DNA of 64,000 bases from Actinomycetes bacterium (GTDB taxonomy: Bacteria > Actinomycetota > Acidimicrobiia > Acidimicrobiales > RAAP-2), in the NCBI GenBank assembly GCA_021803085.1, contig JAJZMD010000017.1, forward strand, positions 11,393 to 75,392. The letters run 5' to 3'. This document shows positions 14,853-44,187 of this stretch, in pieces. The translations under genes and the position numbers were made by a program. How positions within the stretch are numbered: the stretch's first letter is position 1; each line of letters begins with the position of its first letter. Below the pieces are notes generated by a model. That model had not been told where the DNA came from, did not search any database, and was given only the letters and a program-made list of their open reading frames with translations.

Positions 14853-16379
14853 TCAAGGCGAGGCGGGCGCTTCCTGGACTTTCAGCGCCGAGGCTGCGGC
14901 AGCGTCACCCGCGATCCTGCCGAACACCGAGCCGTTGGTCAGCCCCGTACCGCCCGGATAGTTGAAGTAGAAGATGCCTCCGACGAGCTCGCCGGCCGCG
15001 AACAACCCCTTCAGCGGGTCGCCCTCGGTGTCGATCACCTGCGCCTGCTCGTCGATCCGGAGGCCGCCGAACGTGAAGGTCACCCCGCAGGTCACGCCGT
15101 AGGCCTCGAACGGTGGGGTGTCGACGGTGTTCGCCCAATTGCTCTTGTTGATCGCCAGCCCGACCGTCCCTCGGCCGTCCTTCACGTTCGGGTTGAACGC
15201 CACGTCTTGCTGGACTGCGGCGTTGTACTCCTCGATCGTAAGGAGGAACTGGTCGGCATCGACCCCTTCGAGCTTCGACGCGAGCTCCGGCAACGACTTC
15301 CCCGTCACCTTGGTCACCCGCCGGATGCGGTACTCGTCGCGCAGGAGGGGGATGATCTTCGCGTCGAACACCTGCCAGGCCATCTGGCCCGGTTGGGCGA
15401 GGATCTCCCTGCCGTACTTGGCGTAGGTGTAGTTGCGGAAGTCCGCACCTTCGTCGAGAAACCGGCGCCCGTGTGCGTTGATCATCACCGAGAGCGGGTA
15501 GCTGTGCTTCTGGAAGGCGTCCCCGACGCTGAGGTCGCCGAACGGCGGCGCATGCAGGTCCCAGCCGACTGCGTGCGCGCCGGACCAGTTCCCCCAGGCC
15601 ATGGCTCCCGCGTCGAGGGCCATCCGGATGCCGTCGCCCGTGTTGAACCGGGATCCTCGCACCTTCGCGAGATCCCAACCCGGGCCCAGATAGCGGGTGC
15701 GCCATTCGGCGTTCGCCTCGAAGCCGCCGCACGCCAGCACGACGGCCCCGGCCATCGCAATGTGCTCGTCGTCGTCCTTCACGTAGCGGACCCCCACGAC
15801 CCGTCGGCGCTCGGTGACGAGCGCCGTCGCGCGGGACTGGTAGCGGATCGAGCAGCCCGCGCGCTGGACGGCGGCGGTGAGCGCGTCGATCAGCCCTGGA
15901 CCGCCTCCCATCGCCTCGATCGTGAGCCCGCCCCAGAAGGTGAACTTCCCGTCGACGAGGTACGCCTGGCGCCCGTAGATGGGAAGGAAGCGGACGCCCT
16001 TGGCCCGCATCCACTGGAGGGTCGCGAAGCTGCGCTTCACGAGGATCTCAGCCAGGTCCGGGTCCGTGCGGTACTCCGTCACCCGGCCGAGATCGTCGAG
16101 GAACTGGCTCGCGGGGTAACGACCGAAGTCCGTCTTCTCGATCTGCTCAGGGGAGAGGTCGGGGACGAGAGCCAGGATGTCGTCCACGCCGTCGTAGGCG
16201 AACCGCATCGCGCCGGCGGTGAAGGTCGAGTTGCCACCGCGCTCTTCGAACGGCGCGCGCTCGAGCACGAGCACCTTGGCCCCCGCGTCCTGAGCAGCCA
16301 GCGCGGCACAGAGCGCCGCGTTGCCACCGCCAACCACCACTACGTCGTAATGCTCGTCCACTGCTCCTCCTGTCGGCAT
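14853..16379 (-). CDS. FAD-dependent dehydrogenase, tricarballylate dehydrogenase TcuA-like
   Basis: 508 aa. DVVVVGGGNAALCAALAAQDAGAKVLVLERAP..RGGNS and PPFEAYGVTCGVTFTFGGLRIDE resemble TcuA. Confidence 0.75.
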   Translation of the reverse strand: MPTGGAVDEHYDVVVVGGGNAALCAALAAQDAGAKVLVLERAPFEERGGNSTFTAGAMRFAYDGVDDILALVPDLSPEQIEKTDFGRYPASQFLDDLGRVTEYRTDPDLAEILVKRSFATLQWMRAKGVRFLPIYGRQAYLVDGKFTFWGGLTIEAMGGGPGLIDALTAAVQRAGCSIRYQSRATALVTERRRVVGVRYVKDDDEHIAMAGAVVLACGGFEANAEWRTRYLGPGWDLAKVRGSRFNTGDGIRMALDAGAMAWGNWSGAHAVGWDLHAPPFGDLSVGDAFQKHSYPLSVMINAHGRRFLDEGADFRNYTYAKYGREILAQPGQMAWQVFDAKIIPLLRDEYRIRRVTKVTGKSLPELASKLEGVDADQFLLTIEEYNAAVQQDVAFNPNVKDGRGTVGLAINKSNWANTVDTPPFEAYGVTCGVTFTFGGLRIDEQAQVIDTEGDPLKGLFAAGELVGGIFYFNYPGGTGLTNGSVFGRIAGDAAAASALKVQEAPASP

Positions 16380-16398
16380 CTCCTGTGGGCAACGGGGT

Positions 16399-17607
16399 CT
16401 AGGCCAGCAGCTTCTCGTCGTATGGGAACTTCGTCAGCCGTTCCGGGCCGCCAGCCCCCACCGCGATCACGTCCTCCAGCCGGACCCCTCCGCCACCGGG
16501 AATCCCCTCGACGATGATCGTGGGGACGACGGCCACGACCGTTCCCTCCTCCACCGTGAAGGAGGGCGTGCTCCGACCTGGAGGCGAGATGAACGGCGGC
16601 TCGGCGTACCCCACGCCGATGCCGTGCGCGATCACCATCTTCTGCATGAACCGCCCGAGCTCGTTGTCGGAGAGGGCCTGCTCGGCGGCCTGCTGGACGT
16701 CGGTGCCGCTCCTCCCGGGCACCAGGGCCTTGATGACCTCCTCGTGGACGGAATGCGCGAGCGAGTAGACGGCCCTCTGCCTTCCGTTGGGCTCGCCGCA
16801 GACGACCGTCCGGGTCGCTTCGCTGAACACGCCGTTGAAGCAGGCGCCGATGTCCATGAAGACGAGGTCGCCGGGCCGGACCATCGTCTCTCCCGCGAAC
16901 CGCTGCATGGGGGCGGTGTTCTCTCCCGTGCACACGATCAGGTTGCACTGAGGGATCTCGGCGCCGTGGCGATAGAAGACTCGCATCACCTCCGCCAGGA
17001 TCTCGCACTCGCGGATCCCCGGCTGGACGCAGCTCACGGCCACATGGAGCGCCGCGTCCACCACGGCGGAGGCGATCCGCATGAGCTCGACCTCCTCGGG
17101 GAACTTGACCGCCCGAGCAGCATTGAGGCACCCGTTCCCATCGACCACTTCACTGCCTCGCAGGAGAGCCTCGATGTTGCGGAGGCTTGCCGTCGTGCCG
17201 ATGTCGACACCGACACGTCCGTTCTTGAAGCCGAGGTCCTTCAGCGCGGCGCCGATCGGGGCGATGGCGTCTGCGCCGCCGCCCTCGAGCATCGTCCCCG
17301 TCGGGAATTCGCGCACGTGCCCCTCTGGCATCCAGTACATCGTCTTCCTGCGGTGCGGGGTGTCGTCCTGATGGACGAAGCAGATCACGTCGTCCGAGGC
17401 CGAGGTGACGACCGCTGCCTGACGCACCAGGAAGTTCGGCGCGTACAACGGCCGCAGGCCCGCCAAGTAACGTCCGTTGGCGTACTCGAAGGCGACGAGC
17501 GCGTCGAGCCCGAAGCGCTCCATCATCTCGTGTGCGCGGGCGACGCGCTTTCGACGCAGAAGGTCGATGTCCACTTCACGCTTCCAATCTGAGGCTATTG
17601 ACGTCAT
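16399..17607 (-). CDS. M24-family metallopeptidase/hydrolase (creatinase/Xaa-Pro peptidase/ectoine-hydrolase-like)
   Basis: 402 aa. N-terminal creatinase-like domain and pita-bread C-terminal domain (VFMDIGACFNGVFSE..AHGIG..VRLEDV). Confidence 0.75.
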   Translation of the reverse strand: MTSIASDWKREVDIDLLRRKRVARAHEMMERFGLDALVAFEYANGRYLAGLRPLYAPNFLVRQAAVVTSASDDVICFVHQDDTPHRRKTMYWMPEGHVREFPTGTMLEGGGADAIAPIGAALKDLGFKNGRVGVDIGTTASLRNIEALLRGSEVVDGNGCLNAARAVKFPEEVELMRIASAVVDAALHVAVSCVQPGIRECEILAEVMRVFYRHGAEIPQCNLIVCTGENTAPMQRFAGETMVRPGDLVFMDIGACFNGVFSEATRTVVCGEPNGRQRAVYSLAHSVHEEVIKALVPGRSGTDVQQAAEQALSDNELGRFMQKMVIAHGIGVGYAEPPFISPPGRSTPSFTVEEGTVVAVVPTIIVEGIPGGGGVRLEDVIAVGAGGPERLTKFPYDEKLLA

Positions 17608-17625
17608 CGTCGCTCCTTCTGGCGA

Positions 17626-18627
17626 TTACTCGAACCGGGGCAGGATCTTCTCGGCGTAGACCTCGAGGCCGCGGAACGTCTCTTCGATGTCGTCGATCGG
17701 CACAAACGAGACGGTGAGCTCCTCGACACCTGACTGGCGATAGGCGTCGAGGCGCTGGTACACCTGCTCGAGCGACCCCGCGACCACCGGGCCGTCCTGC
17801 AGGAGCTGGTCCTCTGGGATCGTGGACCAGTCCTCGCGCCGTCGGAGCACCTCCGCCACGCGACGGGTCGACTTGTCGTCCCCGGGCACTGCGGAGTACA
17901 CCATCAACCCCGCCCCGATCCATCCGGTGCGCCCGTGCTCCTGAGCTTGTGCGCGAATCTCCTCGATGCCGGATCGGTAGGCGCTCGCGCCGAGGGCGCC
18001 GTGCTGAGGCGCCGCTGGTGCCCACCCGTCACCGATCCGGGCGACCGCACCTCGGATGCGGTCCGACGAGCCGCCCAGCCAGATGCCGGGCCAGCGCACC
18101 GGCTTGGGCCAGAACTCCACGTGCTCCAGCCGGTAATAGGTGCCCGAGTGCTCGACCGGGCCCTCTTCGGTCCAGAGCCGGCGGATGACGTCGAGACCCT
18201 CCAGCATCCGATCGAACCGCTCGACGAAGGGAGGGAACTCCAGCCCGAAATTGGCGTACTCCGAACGCTGGTGCCCCGCACCTGCCTGCAGCACGAAACG
18301 GCCGCCCGAGAGCTGATCGAGGGTCGCGCCCCAGCGGGCGACGTCGACCGGCCGGCGGAGACCGATCGGCGTCACCTGCGGGCCGAACCGCACTCGGGAC
18401 GTCGCGGTCGCGATGGCTGCGAGCAGCATGTACGCGTCCGGAAAGCTTGGCCGCGCCAGATCGTCGGTCGTGTACCCGGCCATCCGCTCTCTCGGCAGCC
18501 ATTGGTGGTCGATGCAGTACACCGAGTGGAACCCCACCTCCTCCGCTCGCTGCGCGAGCCGGACGAAGTCACGCAGATCACGGTGCTGAGGCTGCCCATG
18601 GGCATTGATCTTGAAGGAGAACTTCAT
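17626..18627 (-). CDS. LLM-class flavin/F420-dependent oxidoreductase
   Basis: 333 aa from the internal ATG (MKFSFKINAHG..). GFHSVYCIDHQW, GIWLGGSS. Confidence 0.8.
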   Translation of the reverse strand: MKFSFKINAHGQPQHRDLRDFVRLAQRAEEVGFHSVYCIDHQWLPRERMAGYTTDDLARPSFPDAYMLLAAIATATSRVRFGPQVTPIGLRRPVDVARWGATLDQLSGGRFVLQAGAGHQRSEYANFGLEFPPFVERFDRMLEGLDVIRRLWTEEGPVEHSGTYYRLEHVEFWPKPVRWPGIWLGGSSDRIRGAVARIGDGWAPAAPQHGALGASAYRSGIEEIRAQAQEHGRTGWIGAGLMVYSAVPGDDKSTRRVAEVLRRREDWSTIPEDQLLQDGPVVAGSLEQVYQRLDAYRQSGVEELTVSFVPIDDIEETFRGLEVYAEKILPRFE

Positions 18628-18643: not shown

Positions 18644-19597
18644 TCAGGGTTGCGGAGCCGCGTTGGGAGGCTCCTCGTCGACGACGGGGTTGCGCAGCGT
18701 GTCAAGACCCGTGACGGAGACCGACAGCTCGTCGCCGGCCTTGAGAAACCACTTGGGTGTTCTCGCGTTGCCGATGCCGGCCGGAGTCCCGGTGGCGATG
18801 ACATCTCCAGGGTTGAGCTGCGTCCACTCCGAGATGTACGCGATCAGCCGGCGAACTGGAAAGATCATTGTCGCCGTGCTCGCCTTCTGCACCACAGTGT
18901 CGTTTACCCGCGTCTCCAGATCGAGGCTCTGAGGATCTGCGATCTCGTCCGTCGTGACGAGGTAGGGGCCGTACGACCCCGAGTGCACGAAGTTCTTCCC
19001 AGCCGTCCACTGCACGGCCCGGTGCTGGTAGTCGCGGACCGAACCGTCGTTGAAGATCGCGTATCCAGCTACGACATCGAGCGCGCGAGGTTCGTCCACG
19101 TAGCGGCACGAACGACCGATGATCACCGCCAATTCACCCTCCCAGTCGAGCTGGACGGACTTGATCGGCCGCTCGATGGGCTCGCGGTGGGCGACCTGGC
19201 TGTCCTCGTAGCGGCAGAACAGCACGGGGTCTCCCGGGACCTCCCTCTTGCTCTCTTGGATGTGCTCCATGTAGTTGCGCCCCACGCACAGGATCTTCTG
19301 AGAGCCGGGCGTCGGCACCGCGAACTCGACCGCGTCCATGGAGAGCAGCAGCGTCTGGGGCGTCACTCCACTGGCACGGGTGACGGCATCTGCCAACGCG
19401 GCCAGCCGCTCGCCACCCGACGAGAGCAGGTCGACCATCTTCGTCGGCGATGGCAGCGGTGGGACGAGCAGCTCTGCGAACTCGTCGTCGCCGCGGGCGA
19501 CGGTCGCCCGCTCGAGGGCGTCGACGTCGAGACCTCCGTCACGCACCTTCACGCCGGCCCGCACCACTCCGTCCCGTCGATATGAGAACAGTTTCAA
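18644..19597 (-). CDS. fumarylacetoacetate hydrolase (FAH) family protein
   Basis: 317 aa. DWEGELAVIIG, GDVIATGTPAGIG. Confidence 0.8.
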   Translation of the reverse strand: MKLFSYRRDGVVRAGVKVRDGGLDVDALERATVARGDDEFAELLVPPLPSPTKMVDLLSSGGERLAALADAVTRASGVTPQTLLLSMDAVEFAVPTPGSQKILCVGRNYMEHIQESKREVPGDPVLFCRYEDSQVAHREPIERPIKSVQLDWEGELAVIIGRSCRYVDEPRALDVVAGYAIFNDGSVRDYQHRAVQWTAGKNFVHSGSYGPYLVTTDEIADPQSLDLETRVNDTVVQKASTATMIFPVRRLIAYISEWTQLNPGDVIATGTPAGIGNARTPKWFLKAGDELSVSVTGLDTLRNPVVDEEPPNAAPQP

Positions 19598-19670: not shown

Positions 19671-20519
19671 TCAAGGCGTCTGCGGACGGGCCGCGCCCGC
19701 CGTCTCGGAGGTCGCCCGCTTCGCCCTGTCTGCCAGGAAGGTCCGCACAGCGCCCTGATGCTCCCGGCTCGTGTAGCAGATGGCTTGAGCGGCCGCGCCC
19801 GAGTCGAAGGTGGCTTGCAAGCTCCGCTCGAACGTCTCGTTGAGCGCCACCTTGGCCAGGGCGACGGCGACCGGCGACCGGCCGACGAACTGCTGGGCCC
19901 ACTCCCTGACCTCGTCCAGCATCGGTGTGGCGGTCGTCACCCGGTCGGCCAATCCGAGCGCGACGGCCTCCTCGGCGTCGACCTCGCGCCCGGAGAAGAC
20001 GAGCTCCTTGGCCTTCGCGAGCCCGACGCGCCGTGGCAGGAAGTGGGCGCCGCCGCCGTCTGGGAAGAGCCCGCGGCGGATGTAGCTCATGGCAAACCTC
20101 GCGTTCGGCCCGGCGACGACGAAGTCGCAGCAGAGAGCAAGGTCGCAACCCAGTCCCATCGCCGGCCCGTTGACTGCGGCGATCGTGACCTTGTCCAAGG
20201 CGTGGAGCTGCGACAGCGTCTCGTGGAGCGCATGCTGACGGCGCCACCCTTCCTCGGCGATCGTTCCCGGGTCCGCCTCAGCCCGCTCGCCCATCGCCCT
20301 GACGTCTCCCCCCGCACAGAACGAAGAGCCAGCACCGGTGAGGAGCACGACCGAGATGTCCCGGTGCGCTCGCACCTCTTCGAGCCGCGCCCGAAGACCC
20401 GCCTGCAGCTGGGAGTTGATCGCATTTCGCACCTTGGGCCGGTTCAGGGTGAGGGTGACGATCCCGCCTTCGCGTCGGTACTCGACGCTTGTCTCCGTGT
20501 CGTTCGACGGCATGGTCAT
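19671..20519 (-). CDS. enoyl-CoA hydratase/isomerase (crotonase) family
   Basis: 282 aa from ATG comp(20517..20519), ATGA-overlapping the upstream stop. LNRPKVRNAI..VVLLTGAGSSFCAGGDV. Confidence 0.8.
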   Translation of the reverse strand: MTMPSNDTETSVEYRREGGIVTLTLNRPKVRNAINSQLQAGLRARLEEVRAHRDISVVLLTGAGSSFCAGGDVRAMGERAEADPGTIAEEGWRRQHALHETLSQLHALDKVTIAAVNGPAMGLGCDLALCCDFVVAGPNARFAMSYIRRGLFPDGGGAHFLPRRVGLAKAKELVFSGREVDAEEAVALGLADRVTTATPMLDEVREWAQQFVGRSPVAVALAKVALNETFERSLQATFDSGAAAQAICYTSREHQGAVRTFLADRAKRATSETAGAARPQTP

Positions 20520-21085
20520 CGCCTCCATTCCTCCCGATCGCCTGCCGCACCGCCTCCGCGCTGCGCGATCCCCTCGGGCTCGGTCTGTCCGTGCGCGGGA
20601 GACAGGCCGGCGATCGGAGCGTGCTCCTTCTTCGAGACCATCACGGCGCGCCGGAAGCGCGTCACCAGGACCCCGTCTTGGTTGCAGCCACGCGTCTCGA
20701 TCTCGACGACGCCCTGGCCCGACCGGCTCTTCGACTCCCGCTTGTCCAGCACCTCCGACTCGGAGCACGAGGTGTCCCCTGCGAAGACGGGGTGTGGAAG
20801 CTCGATGCTCCCCCACCCGAGGGCGAAGCCGTTCTCGCTCACATCTGCGGTGCTCAGGCCCGTCCCCGCCACATGCGTCAGGAGCGAGTTGACCAGGCAC
20901 CGGCCCCACTCGGTACGACGCGCACAGTCGTCGTTGAAGTGGAGCTGGTTCGAGTTGCTGGTGAGCAGGCTGAACGAGATGTTGTCGAACTGGGTGATCG
21001 TGCGGCCGTACCGGCAGCGGTACACGTCCCCCGCCGCGAAGTCCTCGTAGAACCTCCCGCTCCAGCCGGGTCTAATCCGGGTCAT
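20516..21085 (-). CDS. MaoC-family (hot-dog) dehydratase, itaconyl-/mesaconyl-CoA hydratase-like
   Basis: 189 aa. FYEDFAAGDVY..RTITQFDNISFSLLTSNSNQLHFN. Confidence 0.7.
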   Translation of the reverse strand: MTRIRPGWSGRFYEDFAAGDVYRCRYGRTITQFDNISFSLLTSNSNQLHFNDDCARRTEWGRCLVNSLLTHVAGTGLSTADVSENGFALGWGSIELPHPVFAGDTSCSESEVLDKRESKSRSGQGVVEIETRGCNQDGVLVTRFRRAVMVSKKEHAPIAGLSPAHGQTEPEGIAQRGGGAAGDREEWRR

Positions 21086-21159: not shown

Positions 21160-22320
21160 TCAGTACGAGCGCGGGAGGCCAAGCACCCGCTGCCCGACAT
21201 ATGCCAAGACCAGGTTGTTGTTCACCGGAGCGATCTCGAACAACTTCGTCTCGCGGTACTTGCGTTCGACGTCGTACTCCACCGACAGCCCGTTCCCCCC
21301 GAAGGTCTGCAGCGCGGCCTGGCCGGCCTGCGAAGCGGCCTGAGAGGCGAGCAGCTTGGCGAGGTTCGCGTCGTCCCCGCAGGGCTCGCCGGCGTCGAAG
21401 TGCGCAGCAGCCCGATACCTCACCAGCGACGCCGCCTCGGTGGCCGCGTAGGCTTGGGCCAGCGGGAACTGCACGCCCTGATTGGCGCCGATCGGTCTCC
21501 CGAAGACCGTCCGGTCACAGGCGTACGCCGACGCATGGTCGACGAAGAACCGTGCGTCGCCGATCGCCTCGGAGGCGATGAGCGTTCGCTCGGCGTTCCA
21601 GCCGTCGAGCACGTGACGGAAGCCCCGACCCTCTTCACCGACCACGTTCTCCGCAGGGACGACGAGGTCGGTGAGGAAGACCTGGTAGGTGTGGAGGTTG
21701 AACATCATCGGGATCCGGCGGGCTTCGATCGAGCTTCCCGCCTCGTTGAGATCGACCAGGAAGAGGGACAGTCCGTCGGTCGTGTGCTCGATTCTGTCGA
21801 GCGGCGTCGTCCTCGCGAGGAGGAGCATGAGATCGGACTGCTCCACCCGGGAGATGAACACCTTCTGGCCGTTGATCACGTACTGATCACCATGCCGGAC
21901 GGCAGTGGTGGAGATCTTGGTGCTGTCGGAGCCAGCGTCGGGCTCCGTCACGCCGAACGCCTGGAGCCTCAGCCGACCCGCTGCGATCTCCGGGAGGATG
22001 CGGCGCTTCTGCGCTTCGCTGCCGTGGCGGAGCAGGGCGCCCATGGTGTACATCTGCGCGTGGCAGGCGCTTGCGTTCCCACCTGAACGATGGATCTCCT
22101 CGAGCACGATCGCGGCCTCGGTGATGCCCAGGCCGCCGCCGCCGTACTCGACCGGGATCAGGATGGAGAGCCAGCCGAGGTCGGTGAGGACCCCCACGAA
22201 CTCGGTCGGGTACTCCTTCGTCTTCTCGAGCTCCCGCCAGTACTCGCCGGGGAACCGGGCGCATACGTCGCGCACGGCGTCGCGGATCGTCAACTGGTCG
22301 TCGCTCAAGGAGAAGTCCAT
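21160..22320 (-). CDS. acyl-CoA dehydrogenase
   Basis: 386 aa. FGVTEPDAGSD, QTFGGNGLSVEYDVERKYRE. Confidence 0.85.
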   Translation of the reverse strand: MDFSLSDDQLTIRDAVRDVCARFPGEYWRELEKTKEYPTEFVGVLTDLGWLSILIPVEYGGGGLGITEAAIVLEEIHRSGGNASACHAQMYTMGALLRHGSEAQKRRILPEIAAGRLRLQAFGVTEPDAGSDSTKISTTAVRHGDQYVINGQKVFISRVEQSDLMLLLARTTPLDRIEHTTDGLSLFLVDLNEAGSSIEARRIPMMFNLHTYQVFLTDLVVPAENVVGEEGRGFRHVLDGWNAERTLIASEAIGDARFFVDHASAYACDRTVFGRPIGANQGVQFPLAQAYAATEAASLVRYRAAAHFDAGEPCGDDANLAKLLASQAASQAGQAALQTFGGNGLSVEYDVERKYRETKLFEIAPVNNNLVLAYVGQRVLGLPRSY

Positions 22321-35813: not shown

Positions 35814-36443
35814 TCACGCGGAGGTGACGCTGCTGGCGGAGCCCCCCTCCGAGGCGGCACCGGGCTTGAAGACCCAGTGCATCTCGCAGCCACTGTCGCC
35901 GCGCCACCTGCAGGCATGCACCTCGGTGTGGTCGAGGTTCGGGTCTACCGAGGCGTACCCGTCGCACGCCCCACGCTCGAATTCGCCGGTGTACTTCCCG
36001 TTGGAAGGCGCAGCATCGCTGTAGTACAGGCACTCCTTCCGGCGAACGATGCAGCGCTCGTCGTCGTACTCGGCGAACAAGGCGCTCGTGTGCTTCGGCC
36101 CTCGGATGTAGTGCACGAGGTCCTGGTACAGGGCCATCGTCCGCGGAGATCCTCCGTCGGTCGCGTCGTTGGCCTCCAGGACCTTGCGGTAGCCGGCACC
36201 TCCGTACCGAAGTCCGACCTGGTAGGCGATCTCCTTTGCAGCATCCTCGCCGACGATCTCTTCGGCGACCGAGTAGATCGTCTGGAAGTTGCCCTCGATC
36301 TGACGGCTCATGCTGTAGATCAGGTCGTCGCTGGTGAGATCGCGAATGGGCACCCGAAGGCTGTCGACTTGCTCGCGACGTTCCTCGCTCAGCGTGCCCG
36401 GGTAGTGGAACGGCACCGCAGCTGCGTAGTCTTCGGACCTCAT
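35814..36443 (-). CDS. hypothetical protein, possibly L-2-amino-thiazoline-4-carboxylate hydrolase-like family
   Basis: 209 aa. Cys-containing C-terminal part (ERCIVRRKECLYY..GACDGY..HACRWRGDSGCEMHWVF) resembles that family from memory. Confidence 0.45.
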   Translation of the reverse strand: MRSEDYAAAVPFHYPGTLSEERREQVDSLRVPIRDLTSDDLIYSMSRQIEGNFQTIYSVAEEIVGEDAAKEIAYQVGLRYGGAGYRKVLEANDATDGGSPRTMALYQDLVHYIRGPKHTSALFAEYDDERCIVRRKECLYYSDAAPSNGKYTGEFERGACDGYASVDPNLDHTEVHACRWRGDSGCEMHWVFKPGAASEGGSASSVTSA

Positions 36444-36480: not shown

Positions 36481-37731
36481 CTATTCGTCGAACCACCGAA
36501 GAGACCTCGGCTCGACCCCGTAGGGCCCGCTTCCTCCCGGCTCGAGAACCCGCGTGCTGCCTGGCTTCCATTCCGGGCCCCCCAGCCGGTCCTTCAGCCA
36601 GTCCGTCGCAAGCAGGTGGACATCGCCGTTCCACTCGGGCCCGTGACCCTGGCGGACGGAGAAGAGGTGACGGCGGTCTGCGAAGATCCAAAGCTCAGCA
36701 GTTCCTTCGAGGTGGCGAAATGCTGACTCCAGCACCTCGAGCGGTGCCCTCGGGTCGTACTCGCCGGCCATCAAGAGGGTGGGAGTGGCAACGCGATCGA
36801 ACAGACTTCTTGGGTCCATCTCGCGGACCCAGGTGTCGAGCACGGATTCGCTCGGTGCCCGCATCAGGTGCCGGAAGAGCCGCTTGTAGCGAGGCGAGTC
36901 CCATTCCATGAGGTAGCCGAGGTCCACCCACGACGCGCCCGTCAGGGCGGCTGCACGAAATCTCGGCTCTACAGCCAAGACCCGCATGCCCCAGTAGGAC
37001 CCGAACCCCTGGCCGTAGAGCAGCCACTGGTCGGCGTCGATCTCGGGCCGAGCCGACAGCACGTCCAAGGTGGCGCTCACCGCCTGCTCGAAGTTGGCCA
37101 CCGTCAGGTGGGTGCCAGCGACATTGCTCTCGCCCATTCCCGGCCCGTCGAACGACAGCAGGTGGAACCCGCGCAGCAAGGAGTGGTTCATCAGAGGGTG
37201 GGGGTACATCTCCTTGGTCATGTCGCAGCCGGGGATGTAGAAGACGCACGGAAGCGGCTCTTGGGAAGCACGAAGGTGAAGGTTTGCGTGGACGGGTCCG
37301 ATCGGCGTCTCGATCGTGAGATGCTCGATCCGATTGGGCGAGAGGCGGCGAACCGCGTCGTAGCAATCGATCGAACGGCCGTGAAGGAACCGCTTTTCGT
37401 CGTTGACGGAGAAGACGACGTGCTGCGCCCCCGCAAACGTGGCTGCTGCGGAGAAGTAGTACTCGAGCGCGGTCATGTGATGACCGACGCTCTCCTCTTC
37501 GCGAGCGATCCTCTCCATCCGCATCGCCTGCCGACCCAGGTGCTTGCTGATCATCGCGTGGGACTTCACCGACCTCGGAAGCGGGCCGCGTCCATCGTCG
37601 GTGAAGTGGTAGACGCGTCCGGTCTCCGACACCAGCCAGTCGAACACCCACTCCTGGCCCATGCGCTGGAGCGACCTCTCGCCGAGGCCGAGAGGTCCTT
37701 CGGGTGCCACCCCGTCCTGATCCACCTTCAC
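36481..37731 (-). CDS. alpha/beta-fold hydrolase paralog 1 (DHPON-hydrolase/FrsA-like), nucleophile elbow reads GQGFG
   Basis: 416 aa. Aligns by eye along its length with the 41262..42638 product. IPGCDMTKEMYP, GEYD and a later His are conserved, but there is no Ser at the elbow. Confidence 0.7.
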   Translation of the reverse strand: MKVDQDGVAPEGPLGLGERSLQRMGQEWVFDWLVSETGRVYHFTDDGRGPLPRSVKSHAMISKHLGRQAMRMERIAREEESVGHHMTALEYYFSAAATFAGAQHVVFSVNDEKRFLHGRSIDCYDAVRRLSPNRIEHLTIETPIGPVHANLHLRASQEPLPCVFYIPGCDMTKEMYPHPLMNHSLLRGFHLLSFDGPGMGESNVAGTHLTVANFEQAVSATLDVLSARPEIDADQWLLYGQGFGSYWGMRVLAVEPRFRAAALTGASWVDLGYLMEWDSPRYKRLFRHLMRAPSESVLDTWVREMDPRSLFDRVATPTLLMAGEYDPRAPLEVLESAFRHLEGTAELWIFADRRHLFSVRQGHGPEWNGDVHLLATDWLKDRLGGPEWKPGSTRVLEPGGSGPYGVEPRSLRWFDE

Positions 37732-37779: not shown

Positions 37780-38541
37780 CTACGCGGTGCGCTCGGCATG
37801 GAGCGAGCGCCCCCCGTCGCCGCCTCCGATGTAGAGGGAGACGAGCTCAGGGTCGGCCAGCAGCTCCTCACCAGGGCCCCGCCTGCGGACCTCCCCGAGA
37901 ACGAGCACGCAGGCCTGCTCCGAGTTGGAGAGCGCCAGGCGCGCATTCTGCTCGATGGCGAGGACGGCCAGTCCCAGACCGGCGACCGTTCTCACGTGCT
38001 CCCACACCGACGTCTGGAACCGCGGGGCGAGGCCGGCGGTCGGCTCGTCGAGCACCAGCACATTGGGCTCGGGCATCAGCGCGCGGCCGATTGCCAGCAT
38101 GCTGCGCTGCCCGCCGCTCAGGGTCCATGCATCACGCTTCGCTGCCGACCGCAGGTCCGGGAACATGGTGAACACCGCGTCGAGCCGATGGCGGGTCTTC
38201 GACCGGCGCAGGAAGCATCCCATCTCGAGGTTCTCCCGGACCGTCAAGCTCGGGAAGACGTTCATCACCTGCGGCACGTAGCCGATGCCGCTCCGAGCCA
38301 ACCTCTCGGGGGTGCGGCCGCTCAGGTCGACGCCGTCCACCTTCAACCGGCCGCCCATCGGCTTGATGAGCCCGACGACCGCCTTTGCCAGGGTCGACTT
38401 CCCCGCCCCGTTCGGCCCGATGATGCTGGTGACCGTGCCGGCCTGCACCGCCAGGGACACGTTCTTCACGATCGGCGCCGCCCCGTACCCGACGGTGAAG
38501 TCCTCCACCTCGAGACGGTGCATGCCCGGCGTTCCGTCCAT
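37780..38541 (-). CDS. HAAT-family ABC transporter ATP-binding protein (LivF-like)
   Basis: 253 aa from ATG comp(38539..38541), TGATG overlap. GPNGAGKST, LSGGQRSML, LVLDEPT. Confidence 0.85.
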   Translation of the reverse strand: MDGTPGMHRLEVEDFTVGYGAAPIVKNVSLAVQAGTVTSIIGPNGAGKSTLAKAVVGLIKPMGGRLKVDGVDLSGRTPERLARSGIGYVPQVMNVFPSLTVRENLEMGCFLRRSKTRHRLDAVFTMFPDLRSAAKRDAWTLSGGQRSMLAIGRALMPEPNVLVLDEPTAGLAPRFQTSVWEHVRTVAGLGLAVLAIEQNARLALSNSEQACVLVLGEVRRRGPGEELLADPELVSLYIGGGDGGRSLHAERTA

Positions 38542-39362
38542 CACACTCGAGCTCCCGTCCCTAGATACGCCTCGACGACGGCCTCCGATTGCCGGAGCTC
38601 CTCCCACGTCCCCGTGCCGATGACCCTTCCTTCGCTCATGACGAAGACCGAGTCGCACACTCTCTCGATGGCTTCCATGTTGTGCTCGACGAGCAGCACC
38701 GCCGCCCCTCGCTCGGCCATCCCGCGGATCAGCTCCAAGAGACGATCGGCCAGGATCGGGTTGACCCCGGCCAGGGGCTCGTCGAGCAGCACGACCTCTG
38801 GGTTCGCCATGGCCAGCCGGGCGAACGCCAGGAGCCGGGCTTGACCTCCGCTAAGCTCGCGCGCTCGGCGGTCCCTCATGTGCTCGAGCTCGACGGCCGA
38901 GAGCACGTCCACCGCCCTTTGGATGTTGGCCGCTTGGCGGGCGGTCGCCCTCCTATGACGCAAGATGGCAGCCCAACCCGAGTAGCCCGACTTTGCGTCC
39001 CCGACGACCAGCACGTTCTCCAGCGTCGTCAGGTAGGGCCACACTCGCGGGTCCTGAAAGGTCCGGATCAGCCCGCGCCGGGCGCGTGCATGCGTGGACA
39101 TTCGGTCGATGCTCTCCCCGCGCAGCAGCACGTGGCCGTCGTCCTGTCGCTCCACTCCCGAAAGAAGGTCGAGGACCGTCGACTTCCCGGCGCCGTTCGG
39201 GCCGATCAACCCCGTCACCCGGTGGCTGCGGAGGCTGAGCGAGCAGTCCTGCACCGCAACCAGGCCACCAAACCGCTTCTTCAGCTGCTGAGCCTCCAAG
39301 ACGCACCCGTCGCCGGCGTCGAGCCCTGCGTCCGCCGCAGCCCCGCCTTGGCTCGAGGTCAC
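38541..39362 (-). CDS. HAAT-family ABC transporter ATP-binding protein (LivG-like)
   Basis: 273 aa from GTG comp(39360..39362), GTGA overlap. GPNGAGKST, LSGGQARLL, LLDEPLAG. Confidence 0.85.
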   Translation of the reverse strand: MTSSQGGAAADAGLDAGDGCVLEAQQLKKRFGGLVAVQDCSLSLRSHRVTGLIGPNGAGKSTVLDLLSGVERQDDGHVLLRGESIDRMSTHARARRGLIRTFQDPRVWPYLTTLENVLVVGDAKSGYSGWAAILRHRRATARQAANIQRAVDVLSAVELEHMRDRRARELSGGQARLLAFARLAMANPEVVLLDEPLAGVNPILADRLLELIRGMAERGAAVLLVEHNMEAIERVCDSVFVMSEGRVIGTGTWEELRQSEAVVEAYLGTGARV

Positions 39363-40381
39363 GCGGCTCCCTCCCCGAGCAACGTACGCACGCGGCCCAC
39401 GACGAACCGGACCGGCCGGCTCTGCCACTTGAGCGCTCCGTCGAAGCCCAGCACCGGGCTTCGCTCCGGGAACAGCCCGCGGGGCCTGAGGTAGAGGAAG
39501 ACGAGGATGATCAGCCCGATGATGCAGTTCTGCAGGGCCGGGAGGAATGTCGCAGCTCCGGCTGGGGCGGGGATGAAGAGGACCGCCTGGGGCACGCCGA
39601 TGAGGACGACGCTCGCTCCGAAGAGCACGCCCCACACGCTCCCCACTCCGCCGACGATGATCCCCGAGAACAAGAGGAACGTCTCGAGCGGAGACCAGCC
39701 CGCGGGGCTGAAGGCGCTCACGTACTGCAGGAGCAGCACGCCGCCAAGGCCGCCGACGGCAGATCCGAGCACGTACGCGGCCAGCTTGCGACGGTACGGA
39801 CTGATGCCGAACGCCGAGACGCTGATGGGGTCGTCTCGCACCGCCCGGAGCGTCCGGCCGAACGCGCTCCGGTAGAGCACCTCGAAGAGGAAGACGACGA
39901 CCACCAGCACCGCCGCCACGAGCCCCAGCAGGAAGAGGTTGTAGCCCGAGTAGGAGAAGCGCAGCACTCCCCCGAACGCGTGCGGCACGCCGTAGATGCC
40001 CTGGGGCCCGTTGAACAGCGGCGCGTACTGGTCGCTGAAGGTGTAGAAGATCAACGTGACCGAGAGCGTGACGATGGCAAAATAGTCGCCCGTCACACGC
40101 CGCAGCGCGATCGACCCCACGACGAGCCCGACGACCGCACAGACCGCGACGGCGACGATCGTGCCCACGAAGAACGACTGGTGCAGCCCGAGGACGTAGA
40201 AATTGCCTTCCGAAGCGTTCGGCGGGGGGAGCATCATCACGCCGCACACGTAGGCGCCGAGGGCGACGTAGGCGTAGTACGACAGGTTGAGATCTCCTGC
40301 CCACCCGTACTGGACGTTCAAGCCCATTGCGAGGATGACCGTGATCCCGCCAAGGGTCAGGACGCTGATCGCATATGTCAT
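39359..40381 (-). CDS. HAAT-family ABC transporter permease (LivM-like)
   Basis: 340 aa, multi-TM. Confidence 0.85.
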   Translation of the reverse strand: MTYAISVLTLGGITVILAMGLNVQYGWAGDLNLSYYAYVALGAYVCGVMMLPPPNASEGNFYVLGLHQSFFVGTIVAVAVCAVVGLVVGSIALRRVTGDYFAIVTLSVTLIFYTFSDQYAPLFNGPQGIYGVPHAFGGVLRFSYSGYNLFLLGLVAAVLVVVVFLFEVLYRSAFGRTLRAVRDDPISVSAFGISPYRRKLAAYVLGSAVGGLGGVLLLQYVSAFSPAGWSPLETFLLFSGIIVGGVGSVWGVLFGASVVLIGVPQAVLFIPAPAGAATFLPALQNCIIGLIILVFLYLRPRGLFPERSPVLGFDGALKWQSRPVRFVVGRVRTLLGEGAA

Positions 40382-41265
40382 ACGGCAAACCTGCGGGCGC
40401 TCGATCGGCCCCCGAAGAGCCCGGTGGGCCTGATCAGGATCGTGGCGATGAGCAGGATCAGCGCCACGACCTCCTTGTAGTCGGAGCTGATGTACACGGC
40501 AGCGACTGTCATCCCCAGCCCCACGATCAGCGCCCCGAAGAGGGCGCCGCCGACATTGCCGATGCCGCCGACGACCGCCGCCGCGAAGATGATGAGGAGA
40601 TAGTCGAACCCGAGGGTGGGCACCAGGGCTCCGGCGGTCAAACCGAGAACGAAGCCTGCGATCCCCGTCAGGACTCCGGAGACGGCCCAGGTCAGCTGGG
40701 TGAGCATCCCTGCCGGCAGACCCGACACCCGCGACAGGTCACGATGGTCGGCGACGGCTCGGACTGCCTTTCCGATGAAGGTGAACTTCAGCGTCGCGTG
40801 GAGCCCTGCGATCACCACCAGCGCAACGCCGATGATGACCAGTTGCTCGGTCGTGAACAGGAAGGGCCCGATGTGCTCGGTCGCCCCTTGGATCGTGGGG
40901 AAGGCGGTCGCGTTGCCGCCGAAGATGATGAGGAGCACGTCTTGGATGATGAGCGAGCCTGCCAACGTCGAGACGACAGCCGTGAGCCGGTTGGTCCCCC
41001 GGCTAGCAAAGGGCCGGATCAGCGCCATGTACACCAGCCATGCCATCGCGGCTCCGGCAAGCGCCGCGGCGATCCCGTCGATCGCGATGGAGTGGAACGG
41101 CCCGTTCGCGGCGTACGCCGCATATGCTCCGACGGTCATGATGTCGCCTTGGGCGAAGTTGGGGAGGCGCGACACCCCGTACTGAAGCGACAGGCCCGTC
41201 GTCGCGAGCGCGAGCAGCGCTGCCGTCACCACACCGAACCCGACCGCGTTGAAGAATGCTGTCAC
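40378..41265 (-). CDS. HAAT-family ABC transporter permease (LivH-like)
   Basis: 295 aa, multi-TM. 4-nt overlaps on both sides. Confidence 0.85.
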   Translation of the reverse strand: MTAFFNAVGFGVVTAALLALATTGLSLQYGVSRLPNFAQGDIMTVGAYAAYAANGPFHSIAIDGIAAALAGAAMAWLVYMALIRPFASRGTNRLTAVVSTLAGSLIIQDVLLIIFGGNATAFPTIQGATEHIGPFLFTTEQLVIIGVALVVIAGLHATLKFTFIGKAVRAVADHRDLSRVSGLPAGMLTQLTWAVSGVLTGIAGFVLGLTAGALVPTLGFDYLLIIFAAAVVGGIGNVGGALFGALIVGLGMTVAAVYISSDYKEVVALILLIATILIRPTGLFGGRSSARRFAV

Positions 41266-42638
41266 GGCAAGGCTCCGGTGGATCCGTCACTCGGGAGCGC
41301 ACCGAGCTTCGACGCGACGGGGGCAGCCTCCTCGTACCCTTCCTCCTCGAACCCCTCCTCCTGGGCCCCTTCTTGGCTGAAGCGCCGGTACCAGGGCCAC
41401 GGCGTGCGCGCCGCCCGCGAGTACGGTCCTTCACCAGGCTGGAGGTACCGGATGCGGCGCCCCGAAGAGCTGCCGGGCGCGGCGTCGAGGTGGGCCTCGA
41501 GCCAGTCGAACGAGTACATGTTGATGTCGCTTCCCCACACGGGGACCCCGCGTCCGTCAGCGACGTTCACTTGATGATGCTGGTCGGCGAAGATCCACAG
41601 CTCCCGGTCGTTGGTCATGAGGTCGAAGAGCCGCAGCACCTCCCGGACGGGGCTGCGCGCGTCGTACTCTCCGACCGCCCAAAGGCAGGGGCAGCGCACA
41701 CCGGGGAGCAGATCGTCGAGACGCATGCCCCGCATGATCTCGTTGAGCTCGTCTTCCGAGGCTGCTCCCGTCAGGTACATGAACAGCCACCGCCAGCGAG
41801 GGCCCTCCACGTTCATCAGGTAGTACTTGTCGCATCCCGAGAACAGGGGTGCCGCCGCGGCGCGGATCCTGTCGTCGTGAGCGGCGGCGGCCATCGCCCA
41901 CTGGGAGCTGAAGCTCATCCCGTAGACGCCGATGCGCCTCTCGTCCACCTCCGGGAGCCTGCTCACCACGTCGATCGCCGCGCTCACTGCCCGCGCGTAG
42001 TTGGTCGAGGTCAGCTTGAGGTCGCGGAGGTTGGCCTCACCCTGGCCGGGCCCGTCGAGGACGAGCATGTGCATTCCTCGCTGCGCCGCATGGTTGGCCC
42101 CAGGGCCCGGGTACATCTCCTTCGTCATGTCGCAGCCCGGCAGGGCCACGACGCATGGGGCAGGGGATGGGACGTCGGCCAGGTGGAGGTACGCCCCAAG
42201 GCTTGTGCCCTCGAACGGGATCAGGACGTGACGAATCTCGGGACTGGTGAGCGACGCGTAGGCTGCGTAGCAGCGCATCGCTCCCTCGTGGAGGAACTGC
42301 TTCTCCTCGTTGGTCTCGAAGATGACGTGCTGAGCGGCAGCGTAGGTGTTGGAGGCCGTGAAGAAGTGGTGCTTGGCGGTCTCTGCCGCACCCGCTTCCA
42401 TCGCGTCCTTCGCCAGCATCTCGGCCTTGCCCGCCGCAAGGCCGAGATGCTTGCTGATCATCGCGTGGGTGCGGACTGTGGCGGGGAGTGTGCGCCCGTT
42501 GGCCTTCTGGAAGTGGTACACCCGTCCAGTCGTCTGGACCAGCCAGTCCAAGACCCACCGGTCGTTCTCCCTCGGCGGCCGCCGGAGCTCTGCACCCCAC
42601 TCCGAGGTTGACGCCGCCAGTGATCGGTCCTCGCCCAC
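41262..42638 (-). CDS. alpha/beta-fold hydrolase paralog 2 (DHPON-hydrolase/FrsA-like), intact GMSFS nucleophile elbow
   Basis: 458 aa. LPGCDMTKEMYP, VYGMSFSSQW, GEYD, ADQHH. Acidic C-terminal tail. Confidence 0.7.
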   Translation of the reverse strand: MGEDRSLAASTSEWGAELRRPPRENDRWVLDWLVQTTGRVYHFQKANGRTLPATVRTHAMISKHLGLAAGKAEMLAKDAMEAGAAETAKHHFFTASNTYAAAQHVIFETNEEKQFLHEGAMRCYAAYASLTSPEIRHVLIPFEGTSLGAYLHLADVPSPAPCVVALPGCDMTKEMYPGPGANHAAQRGMHMLVLDGPGQGEANLRDLKLTSTNYARAVSAAIDVVSRLPEVDERRIGVYGMSFSSQWAMAAAAHDDRIRAAAAPLFSGCDKYYLMNVEGPRWRWLFMYLTGAASEDELNEIMRGMRLDDLLPGVRCPCLWAVGEYDARSPVREVLRLFDLMTNDRELWIFADQHHQVNVADGRGVPVWGSDINMYSFDWLEAHLDAAPGSSSGRRIRYLQPGEGPYSRAARTPWPWYRRFSQEGAQEEGFEEEGYEEAAPVASKLGALPSDGSTGALP

Positions 42639-42818: not shown

Positions 42819-42851
42819 GGAGCGGAGCGACCCGACGGCCGGCTCCGCTCC
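42819..42851 (-). terminator. 10-bp perfect stem-loop (GGAGCGGAGC..GCTCCGCTCC) just after the SBP stop
   Basis: Read directly. No clear U-tract, so it may attenuate or stabilise rather than terminate. Confidence 0.35.
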
Positions 42852-42870
42852 GCACCCGCCTTCTCCAGCG

Positions 42871-44187
42871 TCAGGAGCTCACCTTCTTCAGCTCCGCGGC
42901 GCTGATGGCGTTGAGCGTCTTCACGCTCTTGCCTGTCGCACTGACTTGCGTCGCGCTCCAGGAGCCGAATTCGTTGTGGTACTGGTTGTATGTGTCCGGA
43001 CCTGCGGCACCTGTGTAGTTGATCTTCTTGTGCCCCTTGAGGAGCTGAAGGCCCTTGGGGTATGTGTAGACGATCTGCCCCGGTGCGTTGCTCACCTTCG
43101 TCACGTCCTTGTTCCAGACCTTCGGGTTGGAGGTGCCCGCGTAGTCCATCGCCAGGGCCGCGATGTTCACGGCGTCGTAGACGTAGTTGGCACCTGCCTG
43201 TGCTCCGACGATGGCTGTCTTGCGGCTCACGCCGTTGGCCACTGCGTAGTCGTGCAAGAACGTCTTCACCGCCGGCCCGCTACCTGTGGAGCCCGGCTGC
43301 AGGGAGACGAGGTGCTTGTGGACCACTGTCGCCCCCACGGCCTTGGTGAATGTCACGGCCGCCGTCAGTGTGGTGCCGATGAACTGGTCGTTGAGGCCGT
43401 TCACCTCGCGGTAGTTGTTCATGATCGTCGCGGCATTGGTCGCCGGGATGTCCACGAAGATGCACTGGGGGTGGCCCGTCAGGCTCTTCTCGACCTCGGA
43501 CAGGTAGGACGTCTGGTTCAGGGCGAAGAACTGCAGAGTCAGGATCTTGCCTCCGAGCCTCGAGAACACTCGCTTGAGGTCAGGTGCCAGCTGGTTGTCC
43601 GGTGTGCCGGCCTGGAAGAGGATGGCGCCGGTCTTGCAGCCGCGATTGTGACCTTCGACGGCCATCGCAGCCGCAAGCTGGGAGTCCGAGGGCGTGATGC
43701 GCCAGAGCAACGGGTTCCGGTTGTGGTCGAAATTGAGGCTGCCAGCGGCCGTGAAGTTCGGGATGCCCGCGTGATCGGTGATCGGCTCCAAGGCGAAGAC
43801 GGTCAGCGTCGACTCGCCGATCAGAACGGAGGGGTGATTGGTCGCGATCTCCTTCTTCTGAGCGGGGACCGCATCGACCGGGTCTCCGTAGTCGTCGGTC
43901 TTATCGAGGACGAGCTGGTGACCGTTGATGCCGCCCGCCTTGTTGATGTCGTACGCAGCAGCCTTCGCGCCGGCCCACGCAGCCGCCCCGAACGACGCGT
44001 ACGTCCCGGTGTAGGAGTTGGTCATGTCGAAGTGGACGGGCGCCCCGTGGAAGCGGGGCCCGGACCTGTGTGCGACTGCCGCGTCGGCGACGCCCAAACA
44101 GGTCGCAGCGATGACTCCGACGCTCAGCACTGCCGAGAACGTCAGGGTCCACATCGTTCGAACCGACTTGCGATGCGTCCTGGTCAT
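42871..44187 (-). CDS. HAAT-family (LivJ/K-like) periplasmic/lipoprotein-type substrate-binding protein
   Basis: 438 aa from the internal ATG (MTRTHRKSVRTMWTLTFSAVLSVGVIAA.. signal peptide). GAKAAAYDINKAGGINGHQL. Confidence 0.8.
   Translation of the reverse strand: MTRTHRKSVRTMWTLTFSAVLSVGVIAATCLGVADAAVAHRSGPRFHGAPVHFDMTNSYTGTYASFGAAAWAGAKAAAYDINKAGGINGHQLVLDKTDDYGDPVDAVPAQKKEIATNHPSVLIGESTLTVFALEPITDHAGIPNFTAAGSLNFDHNRNPLLWRITPSDSQLAAAMAVEGHNRGCKTGAILFQAGTPDNQLAPDLKRVFSRLGGKILTLQFFALNQTSYLSEVEKSLTGHPQCIFVDIPATNAATIMNNYREVNGLNDQFIGTTLTAAVTFTKAVGATVVHKHLVSLQPGSTGSGPAVKTFLHDYAVANGVSRKTAIVGAQAGANYVYDAVNIAALAMDYAGTSNPKVWNKDVTKVSNAPGQIVYTYPKGLQLLKGHKKINYTGAAGPDTYNQYHNEFGSWSATQVSATGKSVKTLNAISAAELKKVSS

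Follow-up and report, generated by a model that had tools for sequence, protein, structure and literature searches.

An accessory catabolic island of 27 co-oriented genes and a divergent transporter gene in an uncultured Acidimicrobiales genome

The described systems closest to the locus dealt with here, a run of 27 co-oriented genes in a 64,000-nucleotide stretch of contig JAJZMD010000017.1 (GCA_021803085.1, Acidimicrobiales; 'the window' is this whole stretch), are of several types. For itaconate/methylsuccinate degradation there is the cluster of Ict, Ich, Ccl, Mcd and Msi, known from work on C. necator and P. aeruginosa (Gonner et al. 2025, PMC12290011). There, Ich and the (S)-citramalyl-coenzyme A (CoA) lyase, Ccl, are the sole pathway-specific enzymes, the Msi genes always adjoin Mcd, 96% of known Msi are in Pseudomonadota, and the known substrates of the PrpD family all share a C4 1,4-dicarboxylate backbone (PMC12290011). 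The thn operon for alicyclic dicarboxyl-CoA esters (PMC11659651) and the steroid mega-clusters likewise have many co-oriented genes for acyl-CoA dehydrogenases (ACADs), crotonases, class III CoA-transferases and MaoC proteins, and they likely share with the locus a logic in which a carboxylated compound undergoes ring opening or beta-oxidation. However, the likeness is by gene families, and the importer, the F420-type luciferase-like (LLM) oxidoreductases, the pair of fumarylacetoacetate-hydrolase-family (FAH) proteins and the DHPON-hydrolase-like proteins of the present locus are not part of those systems. Further described relatives are TcuABC of Salmonella, the DHPON hydrolase/Ayg1/FrsA group (2JBW, 8QD7, 3MVE), which is the closest group to two alpha/beta proteins of the window, hyd1 and hyd2, and the V4R/Bet3 domains of the phenol sensors PoxR, MopR and DmpR and of TRAPP Bet3.

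Comparison with related genomes shows that the 27 genes and a divergent gene for a major facilitator superfamily (MFS) transporter make up a single accessory island of 31.3 kb. It is a catabolic island of a generally familiar kind, well delimited and with a few unusual proteins, and the genome that carries it is that of an uncultured member of Acidimicrobiales. That the island is one co-inherited, co-regulated catabolic unit is the reading favored here, with a probability of roughly 0.6, and the main argument for a joint working of most of its genes is the co-clustering, which survives permutation of the gene order. Acidimicrobiales are abundant, mostly uncultured bacteria of soil and water, and little is known of the carbon compounds they use. 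Presence of the island in some strains and its clean absence from a near-identical one is the type of contrast that can link a gene set to a substrate; what is added is a testable candidate pathway, with current ideas not overturned.

Extent, boundaries and empty site

The window is ~70% GC, so genes were called by third-position GC content (GC3), and each was checked against Pfam and NCBIfam. Twenty-seven consecutive genes, all on the minus strand, extend from 44187, the start of the gene for a substrate-binding protein (SBP), to 14853, the stop of a TcuA-like flavoprotein gene, as a preliminary description made from the sequence alone had claimed, though the gene list given there adds up to 29 and its four LLM and five crotonase genes are here three and four. 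Also upheld are its picture of a very long, uniformly oriented catabolic cluster that includes an importer and numerous enzymes of CoA esters and matches no textbook pathway, and its statement that thiolase, ring-cleaving dioxygenase and lyase are lacking, none of these domains being found in the cluster with Pfam and NCBIfam. Along the minus strand the order is SBP, hyd2, two permeases, two ATPases, hyd1, a V4R-like gene, LLM3 and the gene for an IclR regulator; then the crotonase genes ECH4 and ECH3, ADP-forming acyl-CoA synthetase (ACS), ACAD2, LLM2, ECH2, FAH2 and 2-hydroxyacid dehydrogenase (2HADH); and lastly PrpD, class III CoA-transferase (CoAT), ACAD1, MaoC, ECH1, FAH1, LLM1, M24 and TcuA-like. 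The flanking genes, KdpD/Usp-like (13211-14794) and MFS (44609-45982), are on the plus strand. When the 4.25-Mb assembly (genome 93% complete) is ranked with a crude GC3 gene caller that misses ~40% of genes, no other same-strand run is as long in bases, and none has more genes, although there is a tie in gene count.

The boundaries are marked by a direct repeat (repeat search, blastn), and the MFS gene is within them:

14702 to 14780: left 79-bp direct repeat, in the 3' end of the KdpD/Usp-like gene; island boundary
44609 to 45982, plus strand: MFS transporter, divergent, inside the island (PF07690; weak TIGR00893 score; a distant relative of anion:cation symporters)
45982 to 46060: right 79-bp direct repeat, beginning directly after the MFS stop codon

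The two copies of the repeat, 31,280 bp apart, are identical at 76 of 79 bases (96%), and the original, displaced 3' end of the KdpD-like gene comes after the right copy. The same-genus genome G010 has, on its contig C65, 92-97% nucleotide identity to window positions 7768-14782 and then directly to 45982-59174, so that at this empty site (6842-6924 in locus L089) position 14782 is joined straight to 45982. The 31.2 kb that G010 is without corresponds precisely to the 27 genes and the MFS gene. Close relatives either have the whole block or lack it altogether. Within the island the GC content is 65-69%, and outside it 70-74%. An assembly chimera is rejected, the version in a sister metagenome-assembled genome (MAG) being collinear and G010 matching both flanks. 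The island has no integrase or transposase gene in a Pfam scan and no tRNA in a tRNA scan. It may have been inserted through one crossover in the 79 bp of homology, or the empty site could be due to loss in G010 by recombination between the repeats; on either reading the island is one mobile or excisable unit. In 16 same-genus genomes no hyd2 homolog exceeds 35% identity, and in a sample of 400 further genomes of the phylum a single genome encodes a homolog at E<=1e-60 (46% identity), so the cluster is not traceable by vertical descent.

Versions in two lineages, and regulation

Besides that of the window (V1), there is a version in the sister MAG (V2) and another in a second lineage (V3). V2, on contig JAKASZ010000008.1 of GCA_021818815.1 (loci L013 and L019), is collinear, at 88-98% amino acid identity and at the same chromosomal site. 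It is without the MaoC gene, whose coding region is missing between short AGAAGGA(A/G)C repeats, apparently by a deletion between them, with the last ~100 nucleotides (nt) remaining upstream of ECH1 (window 20516-21085 compared with L019 15601-15771). V3, at 63-85% identity, is known from contigs of ENA ERZ27256814 and ERZ27256799, JGI Ga0307372 and Ga0307374 and a Logan run.

V3 keeps orthologs of 23 of the 27 genes clustered in permuted order. The order is a CoA-transferase gene CoAT' (36% identical), a small open reading frame, TcuA and GntR, then FAH1, LLM1 and M24; then ECH2, FAH2 and one opposite-strand gene, followed by SBP, hyd2, two permeases, two ATPases, hyd1 and 2HADH; then a crotonase gene ECH' and two SDR genes (opposite strand), followed by V4R, LLM3, ECH4, ECH3, ACS, ACAD2, LLM2, ECH1 and a transposase gene. 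The last of these, at the cluster end, is of rve/Mu type (L016 19803-20642). Syntenic blocks common to V1 and V3 are SBP to hyd1, V4R to LLM2, ECH2-FAH2 and FAH1-LLM1-M24. Lacking in V3 are iclR, in whose place are GntR regulators, PrpD, the orthologous CoA-transferase, ACAD1 and MaoC. That so many orthologs remain clustered despite the permutation indicates that most of the set is a functional unit and not a chance mosaic, and the claim of the preliminary description that the cluster is one unit gains both from this and from the empty site. The cluster is rare, having been found in two lineages only: distant hyd1 and hyd2 homologs (42-52%) in JGI metagenomes and genome G320 yield no third version, being in other contexts, sometimes with a HAAT-type ATP-binding cassette (ABC) system or an LLM gene.

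Within the run of V1, the 26 junctions comprise seven 4-nt overlaps, seven gaps of 3-19 nt and twelve of 32-232 nt, the widest being those of 232 nt (SBP/hyd2), 113 nt (LLM3/iclR) and 102 nt (ECH4/ECH3). No terminator-like hairpin is found in 14.5-34.5 kb, against 6.2 +/- 2.3 in shuffled sequence. A strong GC-rich hairpin comes after the SBP stop, an arrangement that is common in ABC operons. Candidate regulatory features are:

44520 to 44548, minus strand: predicted sigma-70-like promoter for the SBP operon (TTGACA, 17 nt, CATACT)
34633 to 34647: operator-like palindrome with 2 mismatches to the perfect copy described below, 39 nt upstream of the iclR start
33830 to 34594, minus strand: IclR-family regulator (PF01614, PF09339), inside block B of those set out below

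Within the predicted promoter, which is ~330 nt ahead of the SBP start, is a perfect palindrome of 7-1-7 form, TGGGACAGTGTCCCA, at 44524-44538. Across the 4.25 Mb assembled there are six sites with at most 2 mismatches; the two regulatory gaps of the island hold two of them, against ~0.04 expected by chance in the whole island. V2 has both palindromes, and the promoter that encloses the first, without any change, although its intergenic DNA is ~88% identical overall. The SBP leader itself (44188-44519, ~330 nt) is ~90% conserved in V2; neither it nor the rest of the island has an Rfam match. The simplest reading of these sequence features is that IclR would repress two long transcripts, one of 9 genes from SBP to LLM3 and a second of 18 genes from iclR to TcuA, with the divergent MFS gene probably under the same control. 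In V3 the LLM3-ECH4 spacing is 6 nt, with no iclR counterpart there; hence iclR and the 113-nt region upstream of it are an insertion in the V1 lineage, or were lost in V3.

Several points weigh against one co-regulated unit. Two lineages are a narrow base on which to argue from co-clustering to a single pathway; the operon limits and the control by IclR are predictions, and gaps of 73-232 nt could hold internal promoters. The C5-dicarboxylate branch is not essential to the core, given that V3 is without PrpD, ACAD1, MaoC and iclR, and V2 without MaoC. The TcuA-like protein and the LLM subfamily are the sole proteins to reach NCBIfam cut-offs, and with no other enzyme at an equivalog cut-off the reaction assignments are all family-level. 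With neither integrase nor transposase the island's means of movement is unexplained, and G010 would look no different had it lost the island by a deletion between the repeats, as described above.

A co-transferred mosaic, i.e. a 'catabolic shelf' of at least three independent pathways sharing only location and history, is a somewhat unlikely alternative. Its parts would be an ABC importer with esterases (block A), V4R-ACS-ECH-ACAD (B), an itaconate/methylsuccinate-type module (C) and FAH-LLM-M24-TcuA (D). It is suited by the permutation of blocks between V1 and V3, by the many different contexts of distant hyd and V4R homologs, by several gaps of 45-232 nt that could carry promoters, and by block C being a recognisable module with a paralog elsewhere that is missing in V3, its MaoC gene being missing also in V2. 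However, neither rearrangement nor 15-37% divergence of the proteins has separated blocks A, B and D in either lineage, the island has a single regulator and only two operator copies, terminator-like sites are lacking in 14.5-34.5 kb, and no single block is a complete known pathway. The preliminary description had named a mosaic of separately conserved operons with known substrates as the outcome that would speak against it, and in part this is what was found, namely for PrpD-CoAT-ACAD1-MaoC, the four being separately conserved, of a known type, with a paralogous locus in the same genome and absent from V3.

Importer, hydrolases and other enzymes

For the single unit favored here, an entry point would be a HAAT-type ABC system, the genes for which are interleaved with those for the two DHPON-hydrolase-like proteins, and are followed by that for the V4R-like protein:

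42871 to 44187, minus strand: SBP (Peripla_BP_6, Pfam), with a lipoprotein-like signal peptide
41262 to 42638, minus strand: hyd2, DHPON-hydrolase/FrsA-like alpha/beta hydrolase (PF06500)
39359 to 40381 and 40378 to 41265, minus strand: two HAAT-type permeases (PF02653)
37780 to 38544 and 38541 to 39362, minus strand: two ABC ATPases of LivF and LivG type (profile matches)
36481 to 37731, minus strand: hyd1, DHPON-hydrolase/FrsA-like alpha/beta protein with Gly for the nucleophile Ser
35814 to 36443, minus strand: 4-Cys protein of predicted V4R/Bet3 fold

A sequence search of the PDB with the SBP gives only distant Leu/Ile/Val-type binders and no clue to the ligand. The stop of hyd2 overlaps the start of the adjacent permease gene by 4 nt. 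Proteins hyd1 and hyd2 are paralogs, 42% identical, whose family has DHPON hydrolase 2JBW as nearest solved relative (E=2.9e-18), followed by FrsA and Ayg1-like proteins. Characterised members of the DHPON hydrolase/Ayg1/FrsA group cleave C-C bonds of beta-diketones. The alignment of hyd2 to 2JBW is partial and distant (residues 101-331), with G-M-S-F-S opposite G-R-S-L-G, and its catalytic set is present: the Ser of G-M-S-F-S, the Asp of GEYD and the His of FADQHH. The counterpart motif of hyd1 is G-Q-G-F-G in V1, V2 and V3, the Asp and His are kept, and its orthologs are 77% and 95% identical; at least 101 of 120 family members keep the nucleophile Ser. From its sequence hyd1 may be a non-catalytic partner of hyd2, and a conserved Ser-less twin of a C-C/ester hydrolase beside an importer is a puzzle of wider reach. 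Unlike the described group, hyd1 and hyd2 have a family-specific N-terminal domain (WxxDWLV..TGRVYHF), the nucleophile is Gly in hyd1, and the two genes flank and overlap an ABC importer operon. A literature search on FdeB or DHPON-hydrolase homologs gave nothing usable. Elsewhere in the same genome other HAAT-type ABC operons adjoin M24 (33%) and hyd-family genes (contig C35) and an FAH gene (46%; contig C272), importer plus hydrolase being a recurring pairing there.

The gene between hyd1 and LLM3 had been labelled ATC-hydrolase-like, a label that its product does not sustain: it has no Pfam or NCBIfam match, even at E<=5, and among 120 homologs only one has a precomputed match to PF14196 (ATC hydrolase). 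An AF2 model (pLDDT 84.8) has a V4R/Bet3-like fold, and with Foldseek resembles Bet3 and the sensor domains of PoxR, MopR and DmpR (TM ~0.45). Four cysteines, C131, C138, C178 and C186, are invariant; a conserved Cys cluster near the C-terminus is a further likeness to those domains, and the MopR sensor domain binds zinc via a similar one. The differences are that the window protein is stand-alone, of 200 amino acids, and near CoA enzymes or PrpD, instead of being fused to a transcription factor. Its family, of ~200 amino acids and with no Pfam model, has members at 52-58% identity across Actinomycetota, Myxococcota, Dehalococcoidia and Comamonadaceae. Homologs of crotonase, ACAD, CoA-transferase or ADP-forming ACS are within 10 kb in 18 of 26 neighbourhoods examined, and a PrpD-family gene is in six, in four of which it is the sole cluster homolog found; around the 26 there is no conserved synteny, only this CoA-enzyme or PrpD theme. 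Literature on V4R proteins with CoA enzymes yielded nothing usable. Another puzzle of wider reach is this widespread protein with four Cys and a V4R fold, found together with CoA-ester enzymes in Actinomycetota, Myxococcota, Chloroflexota and Betaproteobacteria.

The enzymes downstream, other than those of the PrpD to MaoC block and the TcuA-like protein, are:

34708 to 35754, minus strand: LLM3, F420-type oxidoreductase (TIGR03619, 172 bits; cut-off 166.9)
33034 to 33810, minus strand: ECH4, crotonase without the canonical Glu pair (Pfam; alignment)
32179 to 32931, minus strand: ECH3, crotonase without the canonical Glu pair (Pfam; alignment)
30014 to 32182, minus strand: fused ADP-forming acyl-CoA synthetase (PF13380, PF13607, PF13549)
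28824 to 30017, minus strand: ACAD2, acyl-CoA dehydrogenase (Pfam ACAD domains)
27730 to 28791, minus strand: LLM2, F420-type oxidoreductase (TIGR03619, 188 bits; cut-off 166.9)
26899 to 27684, minus strand: ECH2, divergent crotonase, single copy in the genome (PF00378, E=2.7e-22)
25855 to 26844, minus strand: FAH2, fumarylacetoacetate-hydrolase family (PF01557, E=3.9e-70)
24798 to 25781, minus strand: D-2-hydroxyacid dehydrogenase (PF02826, PF00389)
19671 to 20519, minus strand: ECH1, crotonase without the canonical Glu pair (PF00378; alignment)
18644 to 19597, minus strand: FAH1, fumarylacetoacetate-hydrolase family (PF01557, E=4.8e-66)
17626 to 18627, minus strand: LLM1, F420-type luciferase-like oxidoreductase (PF00296; TIGR03619, 169.5; cut-off 166.9)
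16399 to 17607, minus strand: M24 'pita-bread' hydrolase with a degenerate metal site (PF00557, PF01321)

By alignment reading, all four crotonases appear to be without the canonical Glu pair. The catalytic positions were placed by the rat ECH motifs, GGGxE and PExxxG, on an alignment of the four sequences with no reference sequence; the first is Gly in ECH4 and ECH3 and Asp in ECH1, and the second is His, His, His or Tyr in the four. Canonical beta-oxidation is rejected on the lack of this two-Glu set. In V3 the ECH1 ortholog adjoins LLM2. Assignment of LLM1-3 as probable F420-type enzymes is by the TIGR03619 subfamily cut-off, which all three pass, together with the encoding in the genome of CofD, for F420 biosynthesis (310 bits; cut-off 257). 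Compared with prolidase 1PV9, the M24 protein keeps three of five metal ligands (D209, H284 and E327), with D220 changed to Glu and E313 to Val, and the V3 ortholog (82%) has the same two changes, so to judge by these residues it is probably not a standard di-metal peptidase.

The substrate favored in the preliminary description, an N-containing or heterocyclic acid, which would be opened by C-N hydrolases and LLM monooxygenases, is very unlikely in the light of these proteins. The M24 family does include creatinase and ectoine hydrolase, and some LLM enzymes, e.g. RutA, act on N-heterocycles. However, the three LLMs pass the F420-oxidoreductase subfamily model and not FMN monooxygenase models, no flavin reductase accompanies them, and the 'ATC hydrolase' is not a member of a hydrolase family. 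No aminotransferase, deaminase, amidase or ammonia-handling gene is found in the island with Pfam, the sole C-N candidate is M24 with its degenerate site, and positive evidence for such a substrate is lacking. A biosynthetic cluster is also rejected: importers are present, the families are only degradative and there is no logic of polyketide or nonribosomal peptide synthesis or of tailoring.

The PrpD to MaoC block and the substrate

Toward the downstream end of the run are the genes whose families parallel those of the characterised itaconate/methylsuccinate-type cluster, and the last gene:

23546 to 24790, minus strand: MmgE/PrpD-family protein of epimerase/isomerase type (PF03972, PF19305)
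22324 to 23538, minus strand: class III CoA-transferase (PF02515, E=4.8e-107)
21160 to 22320, minus strand: ACAD1, acyl-CoA dehydrogenase, candidate for a methylsuccinyl-CoA-type substrate (Pfam ACAD domains)
20516 to 21085, minus strand: MaoC/Ich-like (R)-hydratase (NF038241, 156 bits; cut-off 340; PF19315, PF01575)
14853 to 16379, minus strand: TcuA-like soluble flavoprotein of the fumarate-/urocanate-reductase class (PF00890)

By family, PrpD, CoAT, ACAD1 and MaoC correspond to Msi, Ict, Mcd and Ich, and PrpD is beside an ACAD gene with only the CoA-transferase gene between them, the gaps between PrpD, CoAT and ACAD1 being 7 and 3 nt. The best PDB matches of PrpD are the B. subtilis 'IRG1', its closest solved relative, and IDS epimerase, of which, by alignment, it keeps the equivalents of His99 and Tyr145, as in two-base epimerases. 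The best NCBIfam matches of the CoA-transferase are dicarboxylate transferases, all below cut-offs. The island differs from the characterised cluster in being without Ccl, so that an Ich and Ccl located together are not found, and the Ich-like MaoC is below its cut-off; further, the module is found in an actinobacterial host and within a cluster of 27 genes, and MaoC is dispensable in the sister MAG. With Pfam there is no HpcH/CitE or HMGL lyase domain in the island, the HpcH-family lyase genes of the genome being on contigs C264 and C291. On these comparisons the block may be said to work like an itaconate/methylsuccinate module, without being a proven member, and its absence from V3 makes it an add-on to the core. 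A methylsuccinate/itaconate-like module outside Pseudomonadota is a further puzzle of wider reach. On contig C264 (locus L056, 8088-17041) there are ACAD (69%), MaoC (66%) and CoAT (42%) paralogs with an LLM gene, an IclR gene and an HpcH-family lyase gene; this may be the complete itaconate/methylsuccinate-type cluster of the genome.

The TcuA-like protein passes the TcuA model NF006130 (601 bits; cut-off 369), is below cut-off with TIGR02485 (280; cut-off 372) and has flavocytochrome c fumarate reductases as best PDB matches. The likeness to Salmonella TcuABC ends there, with no match to TcuB (TIGR02484) anywhere in the 93%-complete genome and no TcuC-type carrier; a canonical TcuABC is rejected on the lack of TcuB. 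An 82% paralog (G000:C87:17231-18799; locus L090 6232-7800) is the last gene of an inositol-like operon, which has also an IolD-like TPP enzyme, a GFO/IDH/MocA dehydrogenase and a sugar-type ABC importer, with divergent aldehyde dehydrogenases.

A dedicated pathway for a tricarboxylate or substituted succinate (tricarballylate, aconitate, itaconate, methylsuccinate, or an ester or lactone of one), in which the TcuA-like protein would oxidise, PrpD isomerise, and CoAT, ACAD1 and MaoC lead to citramalyl-CoA, is rather improbable. The NF006130 match, the C4 1,4-dicarboxylate backbone shared by characterised PrpD-family substrates, the dicarboxylate transferases matched by CoAT and the parallel in gene content to Msi-Ict-Mcd-Ich are in accord with it. 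It would, however, leave ~15 other genes unexplained, the island is without a lyase, block C is absent from V3, and the absence of TcuB, the TIGR02485 score and the TcuA paralog in an inositol-like operon are contrary to it.

The working model for the single catabolic unit is broader. An organic acid would enter via the HAAT-type ABC system and/or the MFS carrier, and 'upper' steps not requiring CoA would act on the free acid, with hyd2 (plus the Ser-less hyd1), FAH1 and FAH2, 2HADH, the LLMs, M24 and the TcuA-like protein as candidates for converting hydroxyl groups to ketones and for cleaving ester, lactone or beta-dicarbonyl bonds. The ADP-forming synthetase would then convert the products to CoA esters, on which ACAD2 and the non-canonical crotonases would act. 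In the V1 lineage, the Msi-Ict-Mcd-Ich-like module would take a branched C4/C5 dicarboxylate to citramalyl-CoA, and a lyase encoded off the island would cleave it.

As to the class of substrate, the presence of enzymes of substituted succinates (TcuA-like, PrpD and CoAT) and of four candidate C-C hydrolases makes a substituted (poly)carboxylic acid the most likely, and it may be alicyclic or a beta-dicarbonyl; this assignment is tentative, an N-compound being a poorer match to the enzyme set. A much bolder proposal, improbable as a whole, is that the island encodes the whole of an undescribed pathway by which an alicyclic, lactone or beta-dicarbonyl carboxylic acid would reach central metabolism. 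In it paired catalytic and non-catalytic DHPON-like hydrolases would be coupled to an ABC importer, F420-type LLMs and FAHs would open the skeleton, the V4R-fold protein would be a new accessory or sensor of ACS-crotonase systems, and the end products would feed the methylsuccinate/itaconate-type module.

Just outside the island, metX (46085-47557) has a homolog in one of 12 same-genus genomes searched at E<=1e-80 (94% identity); the genus as binned may be heterogeneous, or the remaining genomes may rely on another enzyme for homoserine acylation. Named MetY homologs come from Acidimicrobiales.

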